From a virus (Duplodnaviria; Heunggongvirae; Uroviricota; Caudoviricetes), in IMG/VR virus record IMGVR_UViG_2547132270_000003, positions 1 to 7,054 of that record: a stretch of 7,054 nt of DNA; one strand, 5' to 3'. The position numbers were made by a program, and so were the translations under genes. This document shows, piece by piece, positions 1-7,054 of the stretch (its first letter is position 1; every line of letters starts with the position of its first letter). The notes under the pieces were generated by a model. The model ran no database searches, had not been told where the DNA came from, and saw only the letters and a list, made by a program, of their open reading frames with translations.

Positions 1-600
1 AAATGGGCTATCTGAAAATTGAGGCGTGTCTTTTAGCAGGCGTTCCAGAATCGCAGATTCATCATCTGCCGTAAGTTCGCCAAGCTTCGCCAGCCACACA
101 TCGTCGGGCCGATCACCGACAAACGCCTGAAAGAGCCGCAGTGAGATCCATTCATGTCGGTATGGTTGATAACTGCGGGCATTCTTTTGGGTCAGGCTTT
201 GCTGAAAGCTGCGTCCGGATTTTCCAAAATCATGAAATAACCCGGCGATGGCTGCCAGCAGCGCAATGCTTTCCGCACATTGCCAGCGGTTTTCTTCCTT
301 GTTCACCAGGCTGGTTTGCGTTGTGCGATTTGTGGGAACGCGCCCCTGAGCATTAAAACGACGAATATTACCCACAATCCACATCAACTCCATTTGTCCA
401 TTCTTCTTTAGCCAGTGACATGCCACTGCGGTATTTCGCCTGGCAGTTTTGCGCAGTAAACGGCGGAGTGTATTAACTCCTTCCAGAGTAATCACCGTTT
501 GCCATGCGGCATCACCTGTACGTTCAGCAAACTGATCAATAATACGGCAGCTTTCCACACGAGCATTTTTCGTACAGCGCGAGATAATTAGGACATTCAT
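1..600 (-). CDS. cas3: Type I-F Cas2-Cas3 fusion nuclease/helicase, N-terminal part only (gene continues beyond the window start)
   Basis: Not in the ORF track because it has no stop in the window. Hand translation of the minus strand from ATG at 600..598 is open to position 1: MNVLIISRCTKNARVESCRIIDQFAERTGDAAWQTVITLEGVNTLRRLLRKTARRNTAVACHWLKKNGQMELMWIVGNIRRFNAQGRVPTNRTTQTSLVNKEENRWQCAESIALLAAIAGLFHDFGKSGRSFQQSL... This is a Cas2-like N-terminus followed by the start of an HD domain (LFHDFGK motif), as in Cas2-3 of I-F systems. The start ATG overlaps the cas1 stop (ATGA, 597..600). Confidence 0.88.
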   Translation of the reverse strand, partial: MNVLIISRCTKNARVESCRIIDQFAERTGDAAWQTVITLEGVNTLRRLLRKTARRNTAVACHWLKKNGQMELMWIVGNIRRFNAQGRVPTNRTTQTSLVNKEENRWQCAESIALLAAIAGLFHDFGKSGRSFQQSLTQKNARSYQPYRHEWISLRLFQAFVGDRPDDVWLAKLGELTADDESAILERLLKDTPQFSDSPF

Positions 601-1580: not shown

Positions 1581-1752
1581 AAACACATCCTGTGATTATT
1601 TTATATTTGAAGGTATTGGGCTTAGTACAGCATTGATTTATGTGCTGAAAATTGATTTCCGTCGCAATTATTACGATTGTTATTGTGTACTGAAGCTAAT
1701 GGTTCGGAGTTGAGAACGCCATAACGCAGCTAAATTTCTGCCATCATCGTAT

Positions 1753-1840
1753 TTGTGAAACTGCCTGTACGGCAGTGAACAACATCTGGCCGTAGCGCTG
1801 TTTAAACCAGTCTTTCTAAGCTGCCTGTACGGCAGTGAAC
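1753..1840 (-). CRISPR. Minimal type I-F CRISPR array: 2 repeats of 28 bp flanking one 32 bp spacer
   Basis: Plus strand has TTTCTAAGCTGCCTGTACGGCAGTGAAC at 1813..1840, the reverse complement of the I-F repeat GTTCACTGCCGTACAGGCAGCTTAGAAA. A degenerate copy TTGTGAAACTGCCTGTACGGCAGTGAAC lies at 1753..1780 (4 mismatches, all in the 8 nt that form the 3' end in transcript orientation). The spacer is 1781..1812 (aacatctggccgtagcgctgtttaaaccagtc on plus). The array is read on the minus strand, co-directional with cas1. Confidence 0.85.
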
Positions 1841-1992
1841 TCAAATACTACACGCTTAGTCCGTTGTTAATAAAGCGAAACCATCAATACTCCCCGCTCA
1901 GACCCTTTTTTATCCCTACATCCCTGCGCATAGTTTTATCAATAAATTACGTCACCCCCGCAAAAAAAGGTCACATCTGCTCCGTCGAAGCG
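1841..1992 (-). promoter_or_regulatory. Putative CRISPR leader (AT-rich, upstream of the intact repeat in transcript orientation)
   Basis: The intact repeat is at the high-coordinate end and the degenerate repeat at the low-coordinate end. For minus-strand transcription this places the leader at 1841 onward, between the clpA terminator and the array. No promoter elements were mapped. Confidence 0.45.
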
Positions 1993-1993
1993 C

Positions 1994-2029
1994 AAAAAAA
2001 GTCCGTAACCCCATACAGGATTACGGACT
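1994..2029 (-). terminator. Rho-independent terminator downstream of clpA
   Basis: On the minus strand: stem AGTCCGTAA (revcomp of 2021..2029), a 12-nt loop, stem TTACGGACT (revcomp of 2000..2008), followed by a run of six or more T (A-tract 1994..1999 on plus). It lies about 150 nt downstream of the clpA stop. Confidence 0.75.
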
Positions 2030-2128
2030 CAGATTGTTAACAACGTGCGATTTGTTTATGTCGAATGCGGCACATTCACCTTACCCAATCTACAAAATCA
2101 TGCAAATTCAATAGATTGCACGAACCTT

Positions 2129-2157
2129 GTAGGCCTGATAAGCGCAGCGCATCAGGC
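2129..2157. repeat. REP-like (repetitive extragenic palindrome) element
   Basis: GTAGGCCTGATAAGCGCAGCGCATCAGGC has the GCCTGAT...ATCAGGC inverted arms and the typical enterobacterial REP consensus. It sits immediately 3' of the clpA stop and is followed by T8 on the plus strand. Confidence 0.6.
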
Positions 2158-2176: not shown

Positions 2177-4453
2177 TTAATGCGCGGCTTCCGGTTTATG
2201 CTTTTGCGCACTCTGGAAGCCGTAGGTCAGCTCATTTTTCTCTTTATCCAGCGCAACAGTCACCTGGCCGCCATCCACCAGCGAGCCAAACAGCAGTTCG
2301 TTGGCGAGCGGTTTTTTCAGGTTATCCTGAATCACACGTGCCATCGGACGCGCTCCCATTGCCCGGTCGTAACCTTTTTCGGCCAGCCAGTTACGAGCTT
2401 CCTGACTCACTTCCAGAGAAACGCCTTTTTGATCCAACTGTACCTGCAACTCGACGATGAATTTATCCACCACCTGATGGATCACATCAGTAGAAAGATG
2501 ATCGAACCAGATAATGTTGTCGAGGCGGTTACGGAACTCCGGCGTAAAGATCTTCTTGATCTCCTCCATCGCATCGGTGCTGTTATCCTGCTGGATAAGG
2601 CCAATCGATTTACGCTCGGTTTCTCGTACCCCAGCGTTGGTGGTCATCACCAATACCACGTTACGGAAGTCTGCTTTGCGTCCGTTGTTATCGGTCAGCG
2701 TACCGTTATCCATCACCTGCAACAGAATGTTGAACACGTCTGGATGCGCTTTCTCGATTTCGTCCAGCAGCAGCACCGCGTGCGGATGCTTAATTACCGC
2801 ATCGGTCAGCAAACCGCCCTGATCAAAACCAACGTATCCCGGAGGCGCGCCAATCAGACGGCTGACAGTGTGACGTTCCATATATTCGGACATATCAAAG
2901 CGTAATAGCTCAATGCCCAGAGCTTTGGAAAGCTGCACTGTAACCTCAGTTTTACCGACCCCGGTTGGACCAGCAAACAGGAACGAACCGACCGGTTTAT
3001 GTTCATGGCCTAAACCCGCACGCGACATCTTGATAGCTTCGGTAAGCGCCTCAATAGCTTTATCCTGACCGAAAACCAGCATTTTCAGACGGTCGCCGAG
3101 GTTTCTTAGCGTATCGCGGTCACTCTGAGAAACACTCTTCTCAGGGATACGCGCGATACGAGCTACCACGGACTCAATATCCGCTACATTGACGGTTTTC
3201 TTACGCTTGCTGATCGGCATCAGTCGCGCACGCGCGCCGGCCTCGTCAATGACATCAATCGCCTTATCCGGCAGATGGCGATCGTTAATGTACTTCACCG
3301 CCAGTTCTACCGCCGCACGCACCGCTTTCGCGGTATAACGCACGTCGTGGTGCGCTTCGTACTTCGGTTTCAGGCCATTGATAATTTGAACGGTTTCTTC
3401 GATCGACGGCTCAGTAATATCGATTTTCTGGAAGCGGCGCGCCAGAGCACGATCTTTCTCGAAAATGTTGCTGAATTCCTGATATGTCGTTGAACCGATA
3501 ACGCGAATTTTACCGCTTGAGAGCAACGGTTTGATCAGGTTAGCCGCATCCACCTGACCGCCAGATGCTGCCCCTGCACCGATGATGGTGTGGATCTCAT
3601 CGATAAAAAGAATGCTGTTGGTATCCTGTTCCAGTTGTTTGAGCAACGCCTTAAAACGTTTTTCAAAGTCACCACGATATTTGGTGCCTGCTAACAAAGA
3701 ACCGATATCCAGAGAGTAAATCGTACAGTCAGCCATCACTTCCGGCACATCGCCCTGGACGATGCGCCAGGCGAGACCTTCCGCAATCGCAGTTTTACCG
3801 ACGCCAGACTCACCAACCAGCAGCGGGTTGTTTTTACGGCGACGGCAAAGAACCTGAATGGCGCGTTCCAGTTCCTTCTCACGACCAATCAGTGGGTCAA
3901 TGCCGCCCACTCGTGCAAGCTGATTCAGGTTAGTCGTGAAATTCTCCATACGCTCCTCCCCACCAGCTTGTTCTTCACTGCCCGGCTGGTTTCCTGGTTC
4001 AGAAGACTGAGATGGCTCGTCTTTACGCGTGCCATGAGAAATAAAGTTCACTACATCAAGGCGGCTGACTTCATGTTTGCGCAACAGATAAGCCGCCTGT
4101 GATTCCTGTTCGCTGAAGATAGCGACCAGAACGTTCGCACCGGTAACCTCATTGCGACCGGAGGACTGAACATGGAATACCGCACGTTGTAGTACACGCT
4201 GAAAACTCAATGTCGGCTGCGTGTCGCGCTCTTCTTCGCTGGCAGGCAGAACGGGCGTGGTTTGTTCAATAAAGGCTTCCAGTTCCTGACGGAGCGCAAC
4301 CAGATCTACGGAACACGCCTCCAGCGCCTCCCGGGCAGATGGGTTACTGAGCAACGCCAGTAACAAGTGCTCGACGGTCATAAACTCATGACGGTGCTCG
4401 CGCGCTCTGGCGAAAGCCATGTTTAAACTGAGTTCCAGTTCTTGATTGAGCAT
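2177..4453 (-). CDS. clpA: ATP-dependent Clp protease ATP-binding subunit ClpA (758 aa)
   Basis: ORF track 2177..4468 (-). The protein is essentially the E. coli ClpA sequence as I recall it ([35 protein letters not shown]..., two AAA+ modules with GESGVGKT and GPTGVGKT Walker A motifs). The true start is the second ATG at 4453 (MLNQ...), preceded by GGAGG; the track's upstream ATG at 4468 lies inside that ribosome-binding site. Confidence 0.97.
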
Positions 4454-4483: not shown

Positions 4484-4804
4484 TCAGGCTTTTTCCAGCG
4501 TACACAGCAATGGATGCTCATTCTCCCTCGCATACTTGTTCACCATCGCTACTTTGGTTTCTGCAACCTCAGCGGTAAAGACGCCGCAAATGGCCTTCCC
4601 CTGGTAGTGAACAGCGAGCATCAATTGCGTTGCACGTTCTACATCATAAGAAAAGAATTTTTGTAACACGTCAATAACAAACTCCATCGGAGTGTAATCA
4701 TCATTGACTAATATCACTTTATACATAGATGGCGGTTTTAGCGCGTCGCGCACTCTTTCTTCCGCCAGTTGCTCAAAGTCCAGCCAGTCGTTCGTTTTAC
4801 CCAT
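4484..4804 (-). CDS. clpS: ClpS, ClpAP adaptor for N-degron substrates (106 aa)
   Basis: ORF track 4484..4804 (-): [51 protein letters not shown]..., which matches E. coli ClpS from memory. It lies 30 nt upstream of clpA, the canonical clpS-clpA arrangement. Confidence 0.95.
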
Positions 4805-4977
4805 TGTCAGTTATCATCTTCGGTTACGGTTATCGGCAGAACGCTCTGCCGCTGACAAGAGCTTATTTGCCTGACCAATCTACTTCACATGATAGATAAC
4901 TATCATTTATATCATTTAGTTAATTAGTCTTTATTTTTCATTATGTTGCAAATAACAAGCCCGTCAAAAACAGTGAT

Positions 4978-5034
4978 ATTAACTACACCATTAACTACAC
5001 CGCTTCACGAACAATATCGAACAACCGCGAACAA
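4978..5034. repeat. Perfect tandem 12-bp repeat (ATTAACTACACC x2) followed by three CGAACAA heptamers at exact 10-bp phasing
   Basis: Read directly: ATTAACTACACC at 4978..4989 and 4990..5001; CGAACAA at 5008..5014, 5018..5024 and 5028..5034. It lies about 175 to 230 bp upstream of the clpS start in an AT-rich region. Confidence 0.5.
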
Positions 5035-5299
5035 AGATCAACACGCTTTAATCATTATCATTTTCCGGCTATCCGTCATGAAGCTGGTGGATGATCTGCG
5101 TGGTGATTTCCACCATTCAGAGCAGGGCGGTCATCATGACCATGCCATAACAAAAACCCCATATTCGTGGTTTTTCTGTGTCGGGGCTATTCTGCTGTTG
5201 CCGTGCTGGTGGATATTCTCCGGTATGCGGCTCCCCATATCGGCATCAGGCCCACCAGCGTGAAGCGTTTTTCATTTTTCGCGGGTATAAAAAATCGAT

Positions 5300-5348
5300 G
5301 GGGCGGGCAGTCCTGAAGAGGTCAGGATACAGAGATTTGACCCGCCCC
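5300..5348 (-). other. GC-rich hairpin (GGGGCGGG ... CCCGCCCC) with an inner TCCTGA/TCAGGA hairpin; terminator-like for leftward transcripts
   Basis: Inverted repeat GGGGCGGG (5300..5307) and CCCGCCCC (5341..5348). On the minus strand a T6 tract follows, but after a 5-nt spacer, so it is not a textbook terminator. A 14-bp perfect palindrome GGCGGAATTCCGCC lies nearby at 5381..5394. Confidence 0.35.
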
Positions 5349-5524
5349 CTCCCTGTGCATGAGCACAATAAGTAACCAAAGGCGGAATTCCGCCCTCGGT
5401 GCTCACATATAAGAAACGATATTTCTTCCACCGATCCCCTGTATTTTGGTATCGCGGGTAAGCCCCAAAATCTGGGTGTTACTCTTACTACCCAAACTAC
5501 GGGTAGTTTCCGTAGTTTCTGGTC

Positions 5525-5544
5525 GAGTTGCAGATCTGCAACTC
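5525..5544. promoter_or_regulatory. 20-bp perfect palindrome GAGTTGCAGATCTGCAACTC (candidate protein-binding site)
   Basis: Read directly; the sequence is its own reverse complement over 20 bp, in a region with no convincing gene. Confidence 0.4.
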
Positions 5545-5800
5545 ACCCACCAGCTAACCCATTTTTGGGCCGTCGGGAATATCAACCAGTTACTGCCAGT
5601 GATCTGGATGTTCTGCAGTCTGGCTGGTGGCTGGACGCTGATTTTTTGCGTACCTGTATCGGTTTCGTATCCGGTGGATGTTCTGCGTACTTTTCAGAGG
5701 CGGATTTCCGCCCACGCCATTCTGGACCAGTTGAAGGGGCCGAATACATCACCGGATTTAGGGGATGTTCCCGGCCTCCTCAATTTGAGGATTGTGGAAG

Positions 5801-5869
5801 AATCAATGGGTTAGTCTTACTGTCCCTCATTTCCTGCATTGCAGGTTTTCGAAATAATCAATGGGTTAG
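5801..5869. repeat. Direct repeats AATCAATGGGTTAG (5801..5814 and 5856..5869), 55 bp apart
   Basis: Read directly. A third, inverted copy of the ATGGGTTAG core (plus-strand CTAACCCAT) lies near 5553..5561. The second direct copy overlaps the TGA (5858..5860) that ends the open frame downstream of the 94-aa ORF. Confidence 0.5.
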
Positions 5870-6031
5870 GCCATCGTGCAATTTTGCACTTTGCCAGCCA
5901 GCGCAATGTTGCGTTATCGGGAATATCAGCACGTTACCGGCTTTCGTCATGTTAAACACTGGCCAGGCATCGCCATTCTTATCAATAAAATCACCAGGCT
6001 CAAAATTGAGCTTTGCTTTAATCTCAGCAAG

Positions 6032-6316
6032 TTACCGCCGTAACCGTTCCGGCTTCTTCCACTGGTAAGTTTTTTTCTCGCTCTCCTGATACATCGCCAC
6101 ACGTCGACGGTATGCCAGCAACTCTAATACCCTGGTTCGTATGTCGCGCATATCCACGCCGTTAAGATCGATACCGTCACAGCGCATCACCTCAGCCACC
6201 ACACGCGCGTAATTTTCAGCGGTGACGGTATCAGGCTGCATGGCCTCCTGTGTGCCAGCCTGCTGGCTGATTCCGGTAACGCGGCGGATTAATCCCAGTA
6301 GTTCGGCTTCTGTCAT
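6032..6316 (-). CDS. Hypothetical small protein (94 aa) immediately downstream of the terS-like gene, possibly a truncated or interrupted gene
   Basis: ORF track 6032..6316 (-), starting at an ATG 11 nt after the terS-like stop with no clear Shine-Dalgarno, so translational coupling is plausible. It ends at TAA 6032..6034, and the same frame stays open for 57 more codons to TGA at 5858..5860. It does not resemble the lambda large terminase gpA N-terminus as I recall it. Confidence 0.5.
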   Translation of the reverse strand: MTEAELLGLIRRVTGISQQAGTQEAMQPDTVTAENYARVVAEVMRCDGIDLNGVDMRDIRTRVLELLAYRRRVAMYQESEKKTYQWKKPERLRR

Positions 6317-6327
6317 AGTGCGCTACG

Positions 6328-6870
6328 TTACTTGTCTTTATCCGGCTGAAACTTATCAGGCACATTTCCGGTAGTTTCCATCAGATAATCGGACAGTATT
6401 CGCGGGATGTTTTCATCAAGTTTTGTGCATGCGTTACAGGCTCTGACAACTTCCTTTTTAAGTCCATCCAGCATAGCGGGGGTAATCTGTGGGAAGCGCC
6501 TTTGCATGGTAAGCGGCAAACTGTCCATGATTGAAGAAATCTGACTCGCCAGTTTTGAAAGCACATATATACAAAATTCCGTACTAATAACGTCGCCGCG
6601 TTCGCGCTCGTTTTTAAGCTCCTGCGCCTCCGCCTGCGCTGTCAGCAATCTGATCCTGACTCGCAAAAGTTCATCATTATCAATCTCGCCTTTGTCGTCT
6701 GTAATCTGGTTAATTGCATTGCTAACCCGATTGTCTATTACGCTGGCAACATCATAAAACGCCTCGCGGCCTTTACGTTCAACGGGAGTCACTCCCCACT
6801 TGTCGAACGCTGTCGCACTTACACGGCAGCTTTGCGCCATGTTTTTTTTGTTCATCAGGTACGATTTCAT
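6328..6870 (-). CDS. terS: Phage lambda Nu1-like terminase small subunit (TerS)
   Basis: ORF track 6328..6882 (-). The C-terminal two thirds (LLTAQAEAQELKNERERGDVISTEFCIYVLSKLASQISSIMDSLPLTMQRRFP...LDENIPRILSDYLME) aligns with lambda Nu1 as I recall it (RLTRAQADAQELKNARDSAEVVETAFCTFVLSRIAGEIASILDGLPLSVQRRFP...LDELIPGLLSEYIE). The N-terminal region is divergent. The track start at 6882 is a GTG; I prefer ATG at 6870, which has GGGGA 5 nt upstream, and ATG at 6855 is an alternative. Confidence 0.85.
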   Translation of the reverse strand: MKSYLMNKKNMAQSCRVSATAFDKWGVTPVERKGREAFYDVASVIDNRVSNAINQITDDKGEIDNDELLRVRIRLLTAQAEAQELKNERERGDVISTEFCIYVLSKLASQISSIMDSLPLTMQRRFPQITPAMLDGLKKEVVRACNACTKLDENIPRILSDYLMETTGNVPDKFQPDKDK

Positions 6871-7054
6871 CAATATCCCCACTTAAGTAATGTTTCAGGT
6901 TGGTGTATTGGTTTTATCTTTCCCTTTTTATTCATAGAGATAGAGCGAACAACAAAACCACCACCAATCCCCTAAAAATACTCATAAATAGCGAAAACCC
7001 GCAAGGTCGCCGCCCCGTAGCCTACCGGATCGCCGGAAAGGACCCGCCAGCCAG
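6871..7054 (-). other. Lambda-type cos site: cosN cohesive-end sequence at 7004..7015 with a divergent cosB between cosN and terS
   Basis: Minus strand reads CTACG GGGCGGCGACCT TGCGGGTTTTCGCTATTTATGAGTATTTTTAGGGG. From memory the lambda left end is GGGCGGCGACCTCGCGGGTTTTCGCTATTTATGAAAATTTTCCGG, so the 12-nt cohesive end and the adjoining ~22 nt are nearly identical. Similarity is lost after about 35 nt, through the ~135 bp up to the terS start. Confidence 0.75.

Follow-up and report, generated by a model that had tools for sequence, protein, structure and literature searches.

Organization of the locus

The stretch of DNA under analysis (the window, 7,054 bp) is the whole of draft contig AEJY01000220.1, from assembly GCA_000208505.2. 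Read along its minus strand, it carries clpS and clpA, a CRISPR leader, an array of two repeats with one spacer between them, cas1f and the first part of cas2-3, with the following features.

4804..4484, minus strand: clpS
4453..2177, minus strand: clpA
Between clpA and the intrinsic terminator, in minus-strand order: REP element
1999..2030, minus strand: intrinsic terminator (14-pair hairpin, then a T run), which ends the clpA transcript
1841..1998, minus strand: CRISPR leader of about 150 nt, homologous by alignment to the E. coli CRISPR4.1 leader
1937-1949: IHF-consensus site, TATCAATAAATTA in plus-strand writing, 97-109 nt upstream of R1
1840..1813, minus strand: leader-proximal repeat R1 (28 nt), GTTCACTGCCGTACAGGCAGCTTAGAAA
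1812..1781, minus strand (the crRNA sense): the single spacer (32 nt), GACTGGTTTAAACAGCGCTACGGCCAGATGTT
1780..1753, minus strand: terminal repeat R2, GTTCACTGCCGTACAGGCAGTTTCACAA
1581..1752, minus strand: trailer (172 nt), from R2 to the cas1f start codon
597..1580, minus strand: cas1f, 327 aa, intact (TIGR03637, 548 bits, profile positions 1-307 of 307 covered)
1..600, minus strand: cas2-3 (cas3f), N-terminal 200 codons, cut by the contig end

The start of cas2-3 overlaps the stop codon of cas1 (ATGA), while the terminator at 1999..2030 sets the upstream limit of the leader, on whose minus strand a simple consensus scan found no sigma-70 consensus promoter. An open reading frame of 54 aa running across the array (1680..1844, minus strand) is without a family match and was rejected as spurious.

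Several further observations concern the flanks. Just downstream of clpA, the Rfam small RNA family ES036 (CssrF) matched window positions 2094-2136 on the plus strand with 42.7 bits, against a gathering score of 37.6. This match overlaps a REP-like palindrome, gtaggcctgataagcgcagcgcatcaggc (about 2120-2160), which probably explains the short matches of >=99% identity in 315 E. coli records. At the other end, similarity to E. coli and to L017, one of the related loci introduced below, ends about 105 nt upstream of clpS, and from position 4911 to 7054 yljB, cspD and macB are replaced by foreign DNA, in which a small terminase gene of the phage Nu1 type (Pfam, 84 bits) lies at 6331-6870 on the minus strand, together with unassigned ORFs, and which has almost no nucleotide match to known phages. 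This part probably marks the place where the contig, at its end, joins a prophage or an island. Moreover, positions 4701-4910 (the 5' part of clpS and the sequence upstream) are 97% identical to E. coli and 86% to L017, with clpS-clpA overall at about 92% to E. coli, levels of identity which suggest mosaic recombination around the clpS-clpA locus.

Repeats and spacer

R1 matches the I-F consensus with 0 mismatches, a match given by none of 200 shuffles, and aligns over its full length with the Rfam family CRISPR-DR4 (50.1 bits, E = 2.4e-9); its last 8 nt are the source of the crRNA 5' handle. R2 consists of GTTCACTGCCGTACAGGCAG followed by TTTCACAA: its nt 1-20 are the same as those of R1 and its four substitutions all fall in nt 21-28, so that the hairpin folds and the Csy4 cleavage site is kept. 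A preliminary description of this DNA, made from its letters only, had held the distal repeat to be mutated in just these 3' 8 nt, and its exact coordinates, spacer sequence and repeat count were all correct on re-reading, as was its placing of the intact repeat on the leader (clpA) side and of the degenerate repeat at the trailer end, beside cas1. With a 28-nt consensus repeat, a 5-bp Csy4 hairpin, a 32-nt spacer and a repeat period of 60 nt, the array has the composition of a type I-F array.

The same description had also allowed that further repeats might have been missed between 1841 and 1992. In the window no additional repeat was found at <=3 mismatches or at <=9 substitutions, and the 15-nt hairpin core has no copy in it beyond R1 and R2; the worry was therefore unfounded.

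As regards folding, in the minimum free energy (MFE) structure of the pre-crRNA the two palindromic repeats pair with each other, and the structure was discarded as uninformative. The end of the leader, GUAUUUG, is complementary to CAAAUAC, formed by the start of the trailer and the tail of the degenerate repeat (1841-1848 and 1745-1756, as minus-strand RNA), and the resulting 7-bp stem brackets the array in this fold; E. coli has a different 5-nt pair at that place, GUAGU/ACUAC. The bracketing stem may be due to chance.

Host and orthology with the Escherichia coli I-F locus

Against E. coli, the clpS-clpA region of the window reaches 92.3-92.5% identity in the best matches, and each of the 5,425 complete genomes of that species in which it has a match lies in the 90-95% band; the window cas1 is 94% identical to E. 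coli cas1f. These identities indicate that the host is a non-coli Escherichia. In E. coli the I-F locus is known as CRISPR-III and lies between clpA and infA, with the two arrays CRISPR4.1 and CRISPR4.2, and equivalent I-F systems have been reported in E. fergusonii and E. albertii (Almendros et al. 2014, PMC3903273). The gene order in E. coli is infA, array, tRNA-Ser, cas6f-csy3-csy2-csy1-cas3f-cas1f, array, clpA.

Judged by sequence and position, the array in the window, between clpA and cas1f, is the ortholog of CRISPR4.1. It has a 28-nt repeat like that of CRISPR4.1, it is oriented in the same way as the cas operon, and its leader can be aligned, the 160 nt upstream of R1 matching the CRISPR4.1 leaders of two E. 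coli strains. Furthermore, the IHF consensus WATCAANNNNTTR lies 97-109 nt away from the first repeat, a spacing common to four leaders, and a CRISPR4.2 leader has this site too. The trailer end is likewise shared: a degenerate repeat, GTTCACTGCCGTACAGGCAG followed by TATTCACA, closes the array in each of five complete E. coli genomes, its first 20 nt being intact, and the distance from the terminal repeat to the start of cas1 is 172 nt in the window, in those five genomes and in nine related loci. The tails TATTCACA of E. coli and TTTCACAA of the window are related by small changes. A homologous degenerate terminal repeat together with an invariant 172 nt means that this is an old, fixed array boundary and not the product of recent decay.

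Nevertheless, the two arrays differ in several respects apart from their hosts, E. coli on the one hand and a non-coli Escherichia on the other. The terminal allele ends in TTTCACAA in the window and in TATTCACA in E. coli; the window has about 120 extra bases, including the REP element, from clpA to the leader; and it holds one spacer, whereas the orthologous arrays of the five E. coli genomes hold 3, 7, 9, 12 and 14.

The remainder of the I-F locus in the same strain

The rest of the operon was read from L007, the Logan assembly of run SRR024110, which comes from the same strain as the window and overlaps it by 1,839 nt with 0 mismatches. In L007 the genes cas2-3 (1,077 aa), csy1 (434 aa), csy2 (307 aa), csy3 (333 aa) and csy4 (184 aa) are full-length, so that all six cas genes of the strain are full-length ORFs. 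The preliminary description had taken cas1 and cas2-3 to be apparently intact, which is borne out by cas1f in the window and by cas2-3 in L007, and its concern that an absence of csy genes might betray a degraded locus is answered by the presence of csy1 to csy4.

Beyond csy4 the locus departs from that of E. coli. Homology stops about 50 nt after the csy4 stop codon of L007, and directly after the csy4 terminator lies a chaperone-usher fimbrial operon (L007:9189-11243) encoding a fimbrial subunit, a PapD-like chaperone and a PapC-like usher. The 2.4 kb that follow csy4 in L007 contain no tRNA-Ser, no leader and no repeat. E. coli and the related loci L020-L022 carry a CRISPR4.2 array between tRNA-Ser and infA; unlike E. 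coli CRISPR-III, this strain has neither CRISPR4.2 nor tRNA-Ser nor infA after csy4, and thus lacks there the two-array layout of CRISPR4.1 with CRISPR4.2 by tRNA-Ser/infA, although a second array may exist elsewhere in its genome. The earlier suggestion that the array belongs to a two-array locus stood with one reservation: it is the ortholog of CRISPR4.1, one of the two arrays of the Escherichia I-F locus, but the partner array was not found after csy4. A separate observation concerns the infA-side CRISPR4.2 of E. coli FDAARGOS_1284 (L009:2967-3295), in which six of six repeats end in TCTTCAAA, not CTTAGAAA, which gives an altered 5'-handle sequence throughout that array; csy1 of the same strain carries an internal stop.

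Array size and history

Ten related loci (L017-L026), found by means of the small ORF in the spacer region between cas2-3 and csy1, have a cas1 that is 95-96% identical to that of the window. The terminal-repeat allele of the window, with its trailer, occurs exactly in 8 of the 10 (L017-L023 and L025). The arrays of these eight hold 3 spacers in five loci, at least 20 in L020 and 44 in L018, with L023 cut at 2, and all eight share a trailer-end spacer, TAAATCCACACCACCAAACGAGACTTTGCATG, which is absent from the window array; conversely, the window spacer was found in none of the same-allele loci. Array sizes of 3, at least 20 and 44 in relatives with the same allele, together with the missing trailer-end spacer, fit the earlier suggestion of a recently contracted or reset array. 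Most likely, the one-spacer state would have arisen when repeats recombined and older spacers were lost, a leader-proximal repeat recombining with nt 1-20 of the terminal one, whether or not an acquisition followed; one unique spacer would have been kept, or gained later, by this lineage. Alternatively, the array may descend independently from an empty one which never held the spacers of its relatives.

It was also considered whether the small size could be an artefact of assembly, the true array being longer and the draft contig joining the leader to the last repeat-spacer unit, a reading that appears quite improbable. The NCBI contig is continuous from clpA through leader, R1, spacer and R2 to cas1, and the two assemblies agree fully over R1, spacer, R2 and cas1. 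The leader-R1 junction, on the other hand, is documented by the NCBI contig only: L007 begins at nt 2 of R1, leaving the junction without confirmation there, and the Logan clpA contig stops 46 nt beyond clpA and is thus uninformative on this point. The Logan contigs of the relatives also break at internal repeats, L023 being without the first spacer seen in L017. Furthermore, as R1 and R2 share 20 nt only, a k=31 graph should branch at this place only if it met other canonical repeats. A second array at another place in the genome would, however, account for such a branch just as well, so that the k=31 logic hints at such an array and, less likely, at more spacers in this one.

Target of the spacer

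Exact protospacers (32/32) were found in Citrobacter sp. wls619, in Buttiauxella warmboldiae CCUG 35512 and in two metagenome contigs. All four lie in the same ICE gene, of the TIGR03752 family, and all four are directly preceded by CC; three of the four have an open reading frame running through the protospacer, where the matched segment encodes DWFKQRYGQMF. The Buttiauxella target gene scores 513 bits against TIGR03752 and has as neighbours TIGR03749, TIGR03751 and the TraC-like ATPase TIGR03744, a neighbourhood which is the conjugation module of PFL_4705-type ICEs. CC is the PAM of type I-F systems (PMC10120712), and its presence beside the protospacers confirms both the I-F subtype and the orientation of the array.

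Near matches of 28-30/32 were obtained in 50 E. coli chromosomes, all of them in genes annotated as 'TIGR03752 family integrating conjugative element protein', and others occur in Salmonella SGI-4; CC is present at three of the four near matches examined, and the three chromosomal homologs among them differ from the spacer at third codon positions. In the phage collection no real phage matched the spacer, the sole good match being a Salmonella houtenae genome contig filed there, in an ICE gene, and IMG/VR gave no exact match. A plasmid target was rejected as well, the best match (28/32) lying in pSGI4, which is an excised ICE (Salmonella genomic island 4). Hence the search that the preliminary description had proposed, for a protospacer with an adjacent CC in phages and plasmids, did yield exact CC-flanked protospacers, in ICEs. 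The spacer is absent from the arrays of 5,426 complete E. coli genomes. Self-targeting, which had likewise been raised, found no counterpart in the 16.3 kb readable from this strain, where the spacer has no match; its similarity to clpA (18/23) is below any meaningful threshold and was set aside as chance.

Predicted crRNA and activity of the system

In type I-F systems, the repeat hairpin is recognised by Csy4/Cas6f, which cleaves the RNA at the 3' base of the hairpin. The I-F arrays of Pseudomonas aeruginosa PA14 and Pectobacterium atrosepticum have a 28-nt repeat with a Csy4 hairpin, 32-nt spacers and a CC PAM, their crRNAs carry an 8-nt 5' handle and a 20-nt 3' hairpin, and the arrays flank the cas operon. 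The window array agrees with them in repeat length, hairpin, spacer length and PAM, and differs at a few repeat positions, in its chromosomal context and in having only one spacer.

On this basis, transcription would proceed from the leader along the minus strand, and Csy4/Cas6f would bind each repeat hairpin (nt 6-20) and cut after G20, releasing a single predicted crRNA of 60 nt, to which R1 contributes the 8-nt handle CUUAGAAA and R2 the segment GUUCACUGCCGUACAGGCAG, with the 32-nt spacer between them. Since the substitutions of R2 lie 3' of the Csy4 cut, the predicted crRNA is fully canonical, and the degenerate part of R2 would matter only as the handle of a spacer that does not exist. 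The crRNA-loaded Csy complex would then direct Cas2-3 to DNA bearing CC and the protospacer, namely the TIGR03752-family mating-pair-formation gene of PFL_4705/SGI-4-type ICEs. With an intact leader, R1 and cas1/cas2-3, uptake of new spacers should still be possible. By this predicted mechanism the array would encode anti-ICE immunity. Overall, we put at about 85% the probability that this is the clpA-side CRISPR4.1 array of a chromosomal Escherichia I-F locus, in a minimal form (leader, repeat, spacer, terminal repeat) and directed against ICEs.

The presence of the genes does not by itself permit activity to be assumed, since several I-F loci of E. coli are decaying: csy1 has internal stops in L009 and L016, csy2 in L014, and L010 has lost part of the operon. 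The array could accordingly be a silent relic, accompanied by cas genes but belonging to an unexpressed or inactive system in which the spacer has no effect. Such a state is unlikely here. Pseudogenised or partly deleted operons are indeed common in E. coli and no promoter was recognised in the leader, but the six cas ORFs are full-length, and no damage is seen in R1, in the R2 hairpin or in the leader motifs. Moreover, the spacer still matches extant ICEs at 32/32, even though synonymous sites of the gene have diverged in other ICE lineages, a persistence that argues against great age without selection.

A CreTA-like mini-array between cas2-3 and csy1

Outside the window, the same locus contains a further repeat-like structure. 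A CreA/CreR-like mini-array region lies between the cas2-3 stop and the csy1 start, antisense to the cas genes (L007:4474-4840), and homologous regions occur at L009:7639-7967 and in L017-L026. Its upstream repeat-like element, psiR-a, has an intact CTTAGAAA handle and a preserved hairpin, whose stem in L007 has changed from CTGCC/GGCAG to CTATC/GATAG in a compensatory manner; the psi-spacer of L007 is 26 nt long, and the downstream element, psiR-b (GTAAACTGCCGTACAGGCAG), sits directly against the stop codon of cas2-3. Over its first 11 nt the psi-spacer matches a CC-flanked site within the same intergenic region in three lineages, the sequences differing among them as follows.

L007, match of psi-spacer to target: TATATAAGGCT
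L017 group, match of psi-spacer to target: TATATAAAGTA
E. coli, match of psi-spacer to target: TAGAGATATCT

Between L007 and the L017 group, positions 8, 10 and 11 differ in both spacer and target, that is, they covary. Position 6 is the site of a polymorphism in E. coli and of a target difference in L024, and it is the position left unpaired by I-F complexes (PMC10120712). In L007 and L017-L026 the target precedes the -35 box of a promoter-like site by 1-4 nt (4 nt in L007), the sites being TTGAAC-17-TACAAT in L007 and TTGAAA-18-TATAAT in L017. The promoter-like site is followed by a 48-aa ORF (MRTDLKICCVVLVCTSWMF...), which has a good Shine-Dalgarno sequence, is hydrophobic in its N-terminal half, was found only in L007 and L017-L026 and gave no match in Pfam.

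CreTA/CrePA modules lie between cas3 and csy1 in the I-F systems of Acinetobacter and Pseudomonas (10.1101/2024.01.05.574328), and the Escherichia mini-array with its 48-aa ORF is built like these modules and like the regulatory mini-arrays that Shmakov et al. 2023 describe (PMC10120712). By this analogy the pair looks like a CreTA/CrePA-type, Cascade-repressed toxin module in an Escherichia I-F system, a case of which no description was found in the literature searched (the search not being exhaustive). With such a module next door, a more specific history for the one-spacer array may be put forward tentatively, though it is doubtful: a recent purge by repeat recombination of the older spacers that relatives still have, followed by re-seeding from a PFL_4705/SGI-4-type ICE, the intact cas operon being retained, in spite of an array that is nearly empty, by the CreTA-like addiction module.

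A Hok-like interpretation of the insertion between cas2-3 and csy1 was discarded, there being no Rfam hok/sok match and the inverted repeat belonging to a dispersed element. This element stands just upstream of csy1 (L007:4845-5003), is about 150 nt long and has inverted repeats at its termini (gcctatccca...tgggataggc). Related copies match each E. coli genome at 4 places (median), either between genes or at the ends of genes such as hemE and qseE. The element is one of the small dispersed repeats (RSA- or MITE-like) and does not belong to a hok mRNA.

It was also considered whether the window array might itself be a regulatory mini-array, its CreA/CreR-type crRNA-like RNA steering the Csy complex to repress a promoter. 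Like the CreA/CreR mini-arrays, it lies in an I-F locus and has two repeats, one spacer and one degenerate repeat; mini-arrays of this kind are known I-F regulators, and the same locus does hold one, between cas2-3 and csy1. However, in CreA/CreR mini-arrays the upstream repeat is degenerate, the spacer short and the match to a promoter confined to the seed (PMC10120712; 10.1101/2024.01.05.574328), and the window array is the opposite on each count: its upstream repeat R1 is perfect, its spacer has the full length of 32 nt, and no promoter of the locus carries a seed match. In fact, no seed (>=9 nt) with a PAM is matched in the window or in L007, which cover 16.3 kb of the strain; all 32 nt of the spacer match foreign ICE DNA; and in front of the array stands a bona fide leader, which bears multi-spacer arrays in the relatives. 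A regulatory role is therefore extremely improbable, and the anti-ICE CRISPR4.1 array is retained as the preferred reading.

Significance

As an element, the window array is of a known kind, an instance of an already described type of array in a public draft genome. It is the array to be expected on the clpA side of an Escherichia I-F locus, and its finding in itself matters little. Comparison with the relatives, however, makes visible the turnover of spacers at a fixed array boundary. The most useful results are by-products. In the first place, the target assignment ties a natural Escherichia I-F spacer to a conserved ICE conjugation gene, of the TIGR03752 family, with exact extant targets. 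In the second, the CreTA-like candidate next door makes the region between cas2-3 and csy1 a testable candidate for Cascade-repressed toxin control in Escherichia.
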